A DNA stretch of 64,000 nt. Source: Waddliaceae bacterium (lineage in GTDB: Bacteria; Chlamydiota; Chlamydiia; Chlamydiales; Waddliaceae). This document shows positions 37,648-39,463 of the stretch, one piece after another. The translations under genes were made by a program, and so were the position numbers. The notes under the pieces were generated by a model. The model saw only the letters and a list, made by a program, of their open reading frames with translations, ran no database searches and was not told the origin of the DNA. Within the stretch, counting starts at the first letter, position 1. Each line of letters opens with the position of its first letter. The stretch lies in contig CAVRUH010000001.1 in the NCBI GenBank assembly GCA_963724325.1, positions 896,001-960,000 of the forward strand, given 5' to 3'.

Positions 37648-37759
37648 TAATCCGGTTATGGAGCGACCCAATTCATTGGGTCTTTTTGCGTGCTCAATTC
37701 ATTGGGCACGGGGAAAGGCGATATCTCGTGATTTCACAGGGCCGAATAAATTCGGCCCT
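37648..37759. repeat. Family A element, left part (interrupted by IS copy 1)
   Basis: Matches 33431 onward up to the end of hairpin 3. Confidence 0.9.
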
Positions 37760-39245
37760 CTCAAGTTTGGCGGTTTTTTAGGCTGCTTTTCGAAAAATTG
37801 CCGATAACATCGGCCTAGTTAATTCTAAATCTATTATACTTTCTATATTTTCTAGAGTTTCACTTCTAATCATCCCTATTAATGCTCTACAGGTATTTCT
37901 TTGTGGCTTGTCTCTCCATTTCGGAATCTCTTCATCAATTGGTGGCACATCCTTGTATTTCAGAATGCTAGACAATAATAAGGCACTATATACTGCAACC
38001 CTAAATGATGGCTGTCTTTCAGCTGACTTTTCACTCCATACTTGGGCCTCTCCAACACCCAATACAGATTTTTCCTCTCTGAAGTTTACTTCTATCTGCC
38101 ATCTGTCTAAATAACTCTGAAGAAGGAATTCTGCTGTGGCCTCGAGATCAGTTGTTAATAGATAGGCGGGTTGGCGGTAATTTCTAATCCCATTTTTCAC
38201 ATAAGGCAACGGTGCTACGACTAATAATCTCATCGGTCTAGTCTTTGTGCCAGATTGCCATAATACATCTCGCAATACTTTAAATCTTATTCTTCTCCAT
38301 TCACCACCATAAAAGAAAATTGCAGACTGCCATGGTATACTATCATCTTGACGTACTTGCTCTGGAGTGAATTTATTAACCCCATATGTGCGTCTACCAT
38401 TGCCTTCAGCCCGATAACATAGTTTTGAATTCTTTCTGGCGCGTGCTAGTGCTTCAACTCCTGGCATGTTTAAATTCATGCAAATTCTATTACAGAAACT
38501 ACCGTCAGTGACCATAAGTTGTTTTTTTGTACACCCTATTGCATCTAAATGCTCCCTCAATTTTCTTACCTCTTCTATATACCGAGTCGATAAATTTTGA
38601 GTCTTACATAATTTCTTGTATGTTAATATTTCTGCTGCATTTGCTCTTTTACCAGGTTTTGTTAAAGGAGGAGTATGAATAAATCTTATAGGCAATGCTC
38701 GTGCACTGACTGATGAATGATTGTACATAGGAAGTAGAAATGAAAATTGAAGAAATCTTTGCCCCCACATTAAATTAACTTGAAATGGGGGTGATAATGG
38801 ATCCCTTCCCCAAGATGTTCCAGGGATCTTCTTTCCTCTTTTGCGAATACGAGTGTCGTCGGCTCCAACAACAACATAATCATCTCCAAAAAACGGCATT
38901 GCCTTTTCCAATAAAGGGTTAAAAAGATCCTCGACATTCCACTTATATTCATTGTATAATCTATAATCGGCTGTAGGATCTAATTGATCTTTTCCAAGCC
39001 AAATGATAAGATTTGTGATCGTATGGCGTCCCAATGAGCAAACAGTCGCGACAGCGTGATCTTTGACTCTTCTAAAGGTGTCTTGTTTACAAAATGCTGG
39101 TCTCCATAGGGAGACTAGTGATAGAAAAGTTTCGAGAAGGCACATATTTTTTTGTCCTCATTTGCGTGAAAAACAAAAATATTATGTGTCTTCTCTTTTT
39201 TTTGAAAGTTTTTTCTCAAAAATATGAGAAACCGCCAAACTTGAG
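37760..39245 (-). mobile_element. Insertion sequence copy 1 (1486 bp, IS4/IS701-like DDE)
   Basis: 17-bp perfect TIR CTCAAGTTTGGCGGTTT; flanking 22-bp direct repeat AGGGCCGAATAAATTCGGCCCT at 37738-37759 and 39246-39267. Confidence 0.97.
37778..39145 (-). CDS. DDE transposase
   Basis: GADDT, VTDGSF and YLDRWQIEVNFREEK, the Y-(2)-R-(3)-E-(6)-K signature. Confidence 0.95.
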   Translation of the reverse strand: MCLLETFLSLVSLWRPAFCKQDTFRRVKDHAVATVCSLGRHTITNLIIWLGKDQLDPTADYRLYNEYKWNVEDLFNPLLEKAMPFFGDDYVVVGADDTRIRKRGKKIPGTSWGRDPLSPPFQVNLMWGQRFLQFSFLLPMYNHSSVSARALPIRFIHTPPLTKPGKRANAAEILTYKKLCKTQNLSTRYIEEVRKLREHLDAIGCTKKQLMVTDGSFCNRICMNLNMPGVEALARARKNSKLCYRAEGNGRRTYGVNKFTPEQVRQDDSIPWQSAIFFYGGEWRRIRFKVLRDVLWQSGTKTRPMRLLVVAPLPYVKNGIRNYRQPAYLLTTDLEATAEFLLQSYLDRWQIEVNFREEKSVLGVGEAQVWSEKSAERQPSFRVAVYSALLLSSILKYKDVPPIDEEIPKWRDKPQRNTCRALIGMIRSETLENIESIIDLELTRPMLSAIFRKAA

Positions 39246-39463
39246 AGGGCCGAATAAATTCGGCCCTGAAAAAGACCCAATGAATTGGGTCACTCCATAC
39301 CGGAATTGATTAATCCGAGTATGGAGCGACCCAATTCATTGGGTCTTTTTCCGTGCTCAATTCATTGGGCACGGGGAACGGCGATGTCTCGTGATTTCAC
39401 AGGGCCGAATAAATTCGACCCTGAAAAAGACCCAATAAATTGGGTGGCTCCATACCGGAATTG
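39246..39463. repeat. Family A element right part plus a second full copy (39311-39463)
   Basis: Same tandem junction (ggaattgattaatcc) as at 34780-34794. Confidence 0.9.

Follow-up and report, generated by a model that had tools for sequence, protein, structure and literature searches.

The 64,000-nucleotide stretch of a Waddliaceae bacterium genome considered here (hereafter, the window; contig CAVRUH010000001.1, positions 896,001 to 960,000) harbors several copies of an insertion sequence (IS), the first of which, copy 1, interrupts a multi-hairpin repeat of family A. Copy 1 is 1,486 bp long (37760 to 39245) and contains a single open reading frame (ORF) on the minus strand (37778 to 39145), coding for a transposase of 455 amino acids with a DDE_5 match, a predicted Tn5-like fold and the YREK signature. 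The ends of the element start with CTCAAG and consist of perfect 17-bp terminal inverted repeats, located downstream (37760 to 37776, plus strand) and upstream (39229 to 39245, minus strand) of the transposase gene. Both of them directly adjoin identical 22-mers, AGGGCCGAATAAATTCGGCCCT, found on the plus strand at 37738 to 37759 and 39246 to 39267, each of which folds into a 9-bp stem with a 4-nucleotide loop and corresponds to one whole hairpin of the family A repeat, the loop orientation being unchanged between the two. The remaining parts of the interrupted repeat lie on the plus strand at 37650 to 37737 on the left and at 39268 to 39311 on the right.

As a stand-in for the empty site, the uninterrupted family A repeat at 33433 to 33586 (also delimited as 33431 to 33584; plus strand) was considered, where the target hairpin is present once (33521 to 33542). 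When copy 1 and one of the two repeats were deleted in silico, the resulting sequence aligned in register with this element. Thus, two observations reported in an earlier note on this DNA, namely, that one full hairpin stands as a 22-bp direct repeat on both sides of copy 1 and that the uninterrupted family A element carries this hairpin only once, were confirmed by sequence, folding and alignment. Neither an empty site nor a circle junction was found in the contigs of four sequencing runs.

Copy 2 (60645 to 62131, plus strand, 1,487 bp) is inserted in the orientation opposite that of copy 1 and, as the earlier note had described, is flanked by a 23-bp full hairpin of the repeat family E (60622 to 60644 and 62132 to 62154, plus strand); one additional homopolymer base, either genuine or due to a sequencing error, causes a frameshift in its transposase gene. 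The same note was right about these two copies, but the window contains four, starting at 37760, 60645, 62314 and 63825, and the source genome contains eight full copies and one short remnant. Copy 3 (62314 to 63799, minus strand, 1,486 bp) has an intact gene (62332 to 63699) and 23-bp duplications at 62291 to 62313 (plus strand, one mismatch compared to the right one) and 63800 to 63822, whereas copy 4 (minus strand) begins at 63825, runs past the end of the window at 64000 and extends to C1:961310 of the source contig.

The eight full copies of this recently spread IS differ from each other by 0 to 2 bases. Their direct repeats are whole hairpins in all eight cases (22, 22, 23, 23, 23, 23 with one mismatch, 25 and 27 bp), derive from two unrelated repeat families (A and E) and show loops in direct orientation, while the IS itself is present in either orientation relative to the target hairpin. 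The remnant (C1:879405 to 879477) retains 29 to 31 bp of the IS, with one end only, between two copies of the 22-bp family A hairpin and looks like what was left of a ninth copy after a microhomology deletion. Furthermore, copies cluster as inverted pairs or in tandem within one family E array (C1:211255 to 214387; window positions 60645 to 64000), and local reinsertion may be promoted by the two fresh targets that each insertion creates.

The nested arrangement of copies 3 and 4, which are separated by a 25-bp spacer, represents a natural test of the relationship between target and duplication. The 23-bp repeat of copy 3 has a 10-bp stem, but the terminal base of this copy pairs with the base past the hairpin, giving an 11-bp stem. 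Copy 4 was inserted on the core hairpin of copy 3, i.e., the right duplication of the latter (63800 to 63822) is the core of the left duplication of the former. This left duplication (63798 to 63824, plus strand) is 27 bp long: the 23-bp hairpin is extended by 2 bases on each side, the left-hand pair being the end of copy 3. One core sequence gave rise to two repeat lengths, 23 and 27 bp, both centered on the dyad. The arrangement derives from a second insertion, since recombination between 23-bp repeats would have left the two copies 23 bp apart, with nothing added to the hairpin.

To extend the analysis beyond the source genome, the homologues of the transposase were collected (4,236 at an E value of 1e-10, among 7,997 scored candidates; 307 clusters of a 50% library at an E value of 1e-30), with relatives found in 10 of the 400 genomes of the host's phylum. 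Loci were obtained from genome contigs (80 loci) and from whole-genome searches. Among 143 loci with a match, 26 duplicates and 24 loci without an end pair were dropped; the ends of the ten loci of the G044 relative were set manually, one locus (L111) was dropped and another (L070) was lost at the end filter. This filter (15/16 identity between the ends and a length of 1.3 to 2.6 kb) was passed by 83 loci, and 78 of them had 45 bases on both sides. Since the generic search for inverted-repeat ends mostly failed for acidobacterial loci, whose left end is located some 450 bp upstream, an end-motif search was used instead. A hairpin qualified if it had a stem of at least 6 Watson-Crick pairs, a loop of 3 to 6 nucleotides and no more than 2 outer unpaired bases.

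A direct repeat of 17 to 42 bp occurs at 59 of the 78 distinct sites (source genome plus relatives), and 58 of these repeats are centered on the dyad of a hairpin, the sole exception being one base off in a run of C. A hairpin adjoins 142 of the 156 element ends, compared to background frequencies of hairpin starts, computed over all positions, of 0.62% in the source genome (636 of 103,223 sampled positions, both intergenic and genic) and 0.86% in the flanks of related loci (434 of 50,750 positions). The length of the repeat follows that of the perfect hairpin (Pearson coefficient, 0.81; Spearman coefficient, 0.75; the sites share elements and repeat families and are not independent), which, together with the passage from 23 to 27 bp in the nested copy 4, bears out the proposal of the earlier note on this point. 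Where hosts have names, they belong to Chlamydiota, Acidobacteriota, Verrucomicrobiota and Gemmatimonadota and include a Syntrophobacter.

The explanation of the repeats as preexisting tandem units or as assembly artifacts is hardly tenable and can be regarded as largely refuted. The family E sites do lie in tandem arrays, and the frameshift of one copy falls in a homopolymer, as long-read errors typically do; however, the array period is 49 to 55 bp and the hairpins are not adjacent, removal of the IS at the family A site gives back an ordinary element with one hairpin, and the pattern recurs in dozens of independent assemblies. Moreover, the junction between copies 3 and 4 is also present, as a loose end, in the contigs of run X3, which possibly corresponds to the source sample.

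Some of the relatives differ in their gene content. The acidobacterial ones are 1.83 to 1.93 kb long and possess an upstream ORF of 111 amino acids (L023:1169 to 1504) with a weak HARE-HTH match (E value of 0.001, below the cutoff); this ORF is unnecessary for the trait, because the window element targets hairpins without it. In a 2.4-kb verrucomicrobial relative (L085:200 to 1087), an ORF of 295 amino acids assigned to DruA (PF14236) overlaps the start of the transposase gene. In the G044 relative (L120 to L129), whose transposase is 39% identical to that of the window, a small upstream ORF enters an A8C tract just ahead of the transposase frame, and this tract may be a -1 frameshift site.

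As far as the target sequence is concerned, clustering at 75% identity divides the 59 repeats into 32 groups, with a guanine-plus-cytosine (GC) content ranging from 23% to more than 80%. No base conservation was detected outside the cuts, and inside them the strongest bias is 0.3 bits. Loops of 3 to 4 nucleotides occur at 54 of the 59 sites. With respect to the stem foot, the cut is offset by +1 at 27 sites, 0 at 15, -1 at 5, -2 to -4 at 4 and at least +2 at 8. The idea that structure rather than sequence sets the target is thus supported by the dyad-centered repeats and by the diversity of their clusters, and the collection of genome-wide copies and relatives that had been suggested with it returned hairpin repeats at all eight source-genome copies and at 58 of the 59 sites with a repeat. 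The accompanying proposal that strand transfer occurs at the hairpin base holds in part: 47 of the 59 cuts are within 1 base of the stem foot, but 9 fall within the stem, at a depth of up to 4 bp.

DDE transposases attach both 3' ends of an element to the target, one to each strand, and the length of the duplication is that of the stagger between the two joining points. A stagger of 17 to 42 bp in 1-bp steps cannot arise from a fixed dimer on B-DNA. For this reason, it is very unlikely that a transposase dimer reads a degenerate half-site sequence in the duplex palindrome, the hairpins being incidental. Such a reading could appeal to the frequent occurrence of G inside the cuts at positions 6 and 7 (82 and 71 of 118 half-sites), to the rarity of T at several positions and to the short TTAG-like target favored by the sister clade of the transposase. 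However, the spacing varies by 1-bp steps between 17 and 34 bp, and up to 42 bp, the bias does not exceed 0.3 bits per position, and the preference for G follows the abundant GC-rich families of repetitive extragenic palindromic (REP) sequences and is missing in AT-rich targets.

The transposase was then compared with profile libraries, as the earlier note had advised. Its Pfam match is DDE_5 (E value of 2e-6), and among the NCBIfam models it aligns over the full length with NF049999 (IS701_3) at 137 bits, the cutoff being 170, whereas NF033540 gave 41 bits (cutoff, 150). The IS4 profiles NF049925, NF033591 and NF033592 gave 31.9, 31.4 and 28.2 bits, all under the respective cutoffs of 250, 152 and 115. 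No IS30, rve or IS1182 model occurs among the Pfam and NCBIfam matches (threshold for IS30 and rve, an E value of 0.1), and a sequence search of the PDB returned no match. The protein had been described as an IS4-like YREK transposase; the YREK signature is indeed there, but the sequence is closer to IS701_3 than to the IS4 models, and its scores remain under the cutoffs for both IS4 and IS701. The 39%-identical G044 relative, with hairpin repeats at 8 of 10 copies, scores 182 bits against NF049999 and exceeds the cutoff of 170, so that the hairpin trait lies partly within a family labeled IS701 by NCBI.

The YREK signature is complete and correctly spaced (Y345, R348, E352 and K359), and these residues are invariant or nearly so in 45 homologues. 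The putative catalytic triad suggested by the alignment is D96/D214/E352, with spacers of about 117 and 137 residues; the former exceeds the IS4 range of 60 to 110 by about the length of one clade-specific insertion, while the latter falls within the range of 100 to 150. Compared to the ISPepr1 end consensus, YT-AA-YTT---A, the first nine bases of the element ends fit and position 13 does not, and the ends of the relatives read CTnnAG. The AlphaFold model of the transposase (mean predicted local distance difference test score, 82.8; predicted template modeling [TM] score, 0.86) has the Tn5 transposase as its best structural match (E value of 1e-9; TM score of about 0.55).

The best annotated plasmid relatives are 23 to 26% identical and are labeled simply as transposase. 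Their ends are similar (CTCGAC..), and 5-bp repeats at TTAG-like sites were observed in three of the five that were fetched, with no clear repeat in the other two. Other NF049999 members show repeats of 4 to 8 bp (L185, L186, L195 and L208) or none, and two canonical IS701-like loci (L166 and L170) show 4-bp duplications. In a quick IQ-TREE reconstruction (61 rows; 10 of the 71 chosen loci were left out as they had no ORF; long branches among the outgroups), all hairpin-labeled rows and five unlabeled rows form one branch with a support of 100 in the Shimodaira-Hasegawa-like approximate likelihood ratio test. The 5-bp group, of which a Rhizobium element (L145) is an example, is a separate branch, again supported at 100, which joins the hairpin branch at 82 together with a long-branch row. 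The 33 hairpin labels derive from 27 scripted calls, five cases in which one end was read by eye and one (L151) assigned by kinship alone. Different from the 5-bp sister clade, the hairpin clade features two basic insertions, at residues 160 to 183 approximately (an extra helix) and 312 to 328 approximately (a predicted beta-hairpin with the conserved residues Y315, Y323 and R324), and the full YREK signature in place of F-R-E-R. As a guess, the two insertions might be the elements that read the junction.

Considering these data together, the Tn5-fold transposase probably acts on a palindrome that has been extruded as a cruciform and probably links the transposon ends to the hairpin arms, one end per arm, at the 5' foot, the extrusion itself being inferred from the pattern of the repeats. 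Excision would proceed by Tn5-type cut and paste, as the fold and the YREK signature suggest. The target would then be a four-way junction, where the attacked phosphates would be the diagonal pair at the branch point, in the way a junction resolvase cuts; however long the arms, the phosphates at their 5' feet would remain diagonal neighbors at the branch point. Each product would be left with a folded 5' overhang, which a host polymerase would unfold and copy, generating the duplication. Cuts within long stems could reflect partly extruded cruciforms, and plain duplex may now and then be cut by the enzyme with a short stagger instead, as in one inferred case of 7 bp. Attack at the 5' feet predicts dyad-centered repeats, direct loops, free orientation, a length that tracks the stem and occasional cuts inside it, all of which were seen. 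Wan et al. (2017; PMC5678879) draw the same geometry as a hypothetical pathway b.

A different route to the same duplication would be the attack of a single hairpin foot in a transient single strand (at a fork or in a transcription bubble), or else an ordinary short stagger, followed by hairpin-primed template switching that copies the rest. Short stems fold more readily in single strands, the inferred 7-bp event shows that a short stagger is possible, and in a few cases the two repeats are mismatched at positions of the stem (copy 3, L017, L061, L075 and L096), as correction of the palindrome during repair would give. However, we consider this route improbable, given that it predicts neither direct loops nor the dyad-symmetric cuts found in 58 of 59 cases, even outside the paired stem or within a longer stem.

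Several results weigh against the attack of an extruded cruciform in its simplest form. No repeat was found at 19 of the 78 sites, although 31 of the 38 ends of those sites adjoin a hairpin. By manual tally, the repeat is present at 54 of 62 sites on contigs of at least 50 kb and at 5 of 16 on shorter ones. In a set of 80 metagenome loci, 25 were without an end pair, a hairpin adjoins 80 of the 95 scorable ends, and the repeat occurs in only 6 of the 42 loci with two flanks, which lie on short contigs. We infer that most of the missing repeats reflect the collapse of multicopy elements in short-read assemblies or recombination between copies. The earlier note had indicated copies in nonpalindromic DNA with a short duplication as evidence against its proposal, and one such case emerged indirectly: L123 and L128 have reciprocal flanks, from which a hairpin repeat of 21 bp and, in nonpalindromic DNA, a repeat of 7 bp can be reconstructed. 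Likewise, L037 and L039 share one hairpin and leave just a 3-bp overlap at the other. It follows from these two pairs that the use of hairpins is strong, not absolute.

To the same side belong four members of the hairpin clade (L216, L217, L219 and L223) without detectable terminal repeats. They are located at the base of the clade, and three of them share a hairpin 20 to 30 bases past the stop codon; it is possible that they are decayed or domesticated copies. Stems of 8 to 10 bp are also short for spontaneous extrusion, so that the enzyme or supercoiling must assist it. Furthermore, the evidence for the empty site comes from a paralogous family A repeat rather than from a sister-strain allele.

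The choice among hairpins raises a further difficulty. All nine insertions of the source genome (eight copies plus the remnant) are in families A or E, which account for 135 of the 565 perfect hairpins with a stem of at least 8 bp and for 109 of the 225 with a stability of -9 kcal/mol or better. This hints at an additional preference for these families, for which the evidence is weak because the insertions cluster in about six places. In addition, a REP-type GTRG lies close to the cut in 22 of the 59 sites, at one and the same offset in 14 of them, and is absent in 37. One could therefore suppose that a host protein acting on REP-like repeats or terminators (a REP-associated tyrosine transposase, gyrase, HU or a junction binder) brings in the transposase and keeps the hairpins open, so that the host would choose the site while the cut would still be set by structure. 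The neglect of the 116 other hairpins of equal stability, the GTRG sites and the targeting of REPs by other IS families, as described in PMC1525189, would fit such guidance. On the other hand, 37 sites do without GTRG, the targets in a Parachlamydiaceae genome include AT-rich hairpins resembling terminators and the hosts span several phyla, so that guidance by a host protein appears rather unlikely.

Our preferred reading, i.e., direct attack of the cruciform feet, can be extended to the whole clade in a more tentative form. It is possible to hypothesize, with less than even confidence, that this large, unnamed Tn5-fold clade comprises host-factor-free integrases of four-way junctions of any sequence, with a diagonal, resolvase-like cut, a property owed to the two basic insertions gained since the split from the 5-bp sister clade. 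If this were true, each insertion would record the position of a cruciform branch point in a living cell.

Other features of the window were noticed around the IS. Three Sel1-repeat genes on the minus strand (32341 to 37617) are each preceded by a repeated segment of about 300 bp (89% alike) and by a family A element, and the region looks like a tandem duplication of a gene plus its repeat. A gene coding for a 193-amino-acid P-loop protein resembling AAA_33 and zeta toxins (34007 to 34588) is located between family A elements, and a TLC ATP/ADP translocase gene (40547 to 42091) lies near the IS. This gene, together with a kinship to a Parachlamydiaceae genome at the level of the order, suggests that the host is probably an environmental chlamydia. 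A further dispersed repeat family (43597 to 44213, 18559 to 18702, 30998 to 31188 and 46986 to 47101) includes a three-copy array with a period of 214 to 215 bp and has no insertion of this IS in it. Two ideas were abandoned: that the IS built the family E arrays, as a search for zero-gap tandem hairpin scars yielded only the 29-bp remnant and ordinary arrays, and that families A and E share a GC-N11/12-GC motif, which failed across the relatives.

The length of the target duplication is normally a fixed property of the transposase, whereas here it is set by the target. Since a close sister clade keeps a fixed, sequence-led target of 5 bp, domain swaps between the two could test how recognition passed from sequence to structure. 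The element would also serve as a genetic reporter of short cruciforms in bacterial chromosomes, which are hard to show in vivo, and it could become a tool for the insertion of cargo at terminators or REP-like repeats. Since an intact hairpin is kept on both sides, such insertion would cost the host little.

In the literature searched (ISfinder/TnPedia, subscription journals and the Siguier reviews lay outside the search), no description of whole-hairpin duplication by an IS4- or IS701-type element was found. The outcome as such is already in print for IS1630 of Mycoplasma fermentans, an IS30-type element described by its title and by citing passages as duplicating a whole palindromic target (Calcutt, Lavrrar and Wise 1999, J Bacteriol 181:7597; via PMC3317919 and PMC2853133). 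The result is the same as in the window, but the transposase of the latter is not of the IS30 type, and IS1630 is one element in one species, compared to a clade distributed over several phyla. The precedent named in the earlier note was instead the IS1182 family. According to Wan et al. (2017; PMC5678879) and Furi et al. (2016; PMC4923244), some members of this family target palindromes, and IS1272/TnSha1, for which a cruciform model has been proposed, inserts at hairpins with no primary sequence consensus and in both orientations, features shared with the window IS. However, IS1272 attacks the 3' feet and deletes the stem-loop with no duplication, while the window IS duplicates the hairpin and belongs to another transposase family. 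For IS1182 members, the note speaks of duplication of whole palindromes, whereas the two papers mention palindromes as targets only, and the nearest printed precedent is IS1630.

The REP-targeting elements (ISPsy8, ISRm22, ISPpu9/10, IS1397 and IS621; PMC1525189) make a fixed cut in one REP family, often at the dyad axis, with a duplication of 0 to 6 bp. Like them, the window IS inserts into palindromic repeats that are abundant between genes and cost the host little as landing sites. Different from them, its cuts lie at the two feet of the hairpin, and its target hairpins are unrelated to each other.

As for the IS701 family, De Palmenaer et al. (2008; PMC2266710) define it by 4-bp duplications, ---YACT-Y--YR ends and the lack of a full YREK, adding that the end consensus does not fit the whole family. 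The best full-length hidden Markov model (HMM) match (NF049999, below its cutoff), the similar size and the single DDE ORF bring the window IS close to IS701, whereas its duplications of 22 to 27 bp, the CTnnAG ends and the full YREK set it apart from that definition. In the same paper, the IS4 family is characterized by the motif Y(2)R(3)E(6)K, by the spacing D(60-110)D(100-150)E and by duplications of about one helical turn (7 to 13 bp in its subgroups). The window IS resembles the ISPepr1 subgroup and Tn5/IS50 in YREK, in the predicted Tn5-like fold and in the first nine end positions (YT-AA-YTT), though not at position 13, and the inferred 7-bp nonhairpin repeat falls in the ISPepr1 range; however, in its clade the duplications vary, follow hairpins and exceed those of IS4 two- to fourfold, and the IS4 HMMs reach only 28 to 32 bits against cutoffs of 115 to 250. 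Thus, the window IS works like IS1630, is not an IS30 element and, departing from defining features of both IS4 and IS701, is not a strict member of either family.

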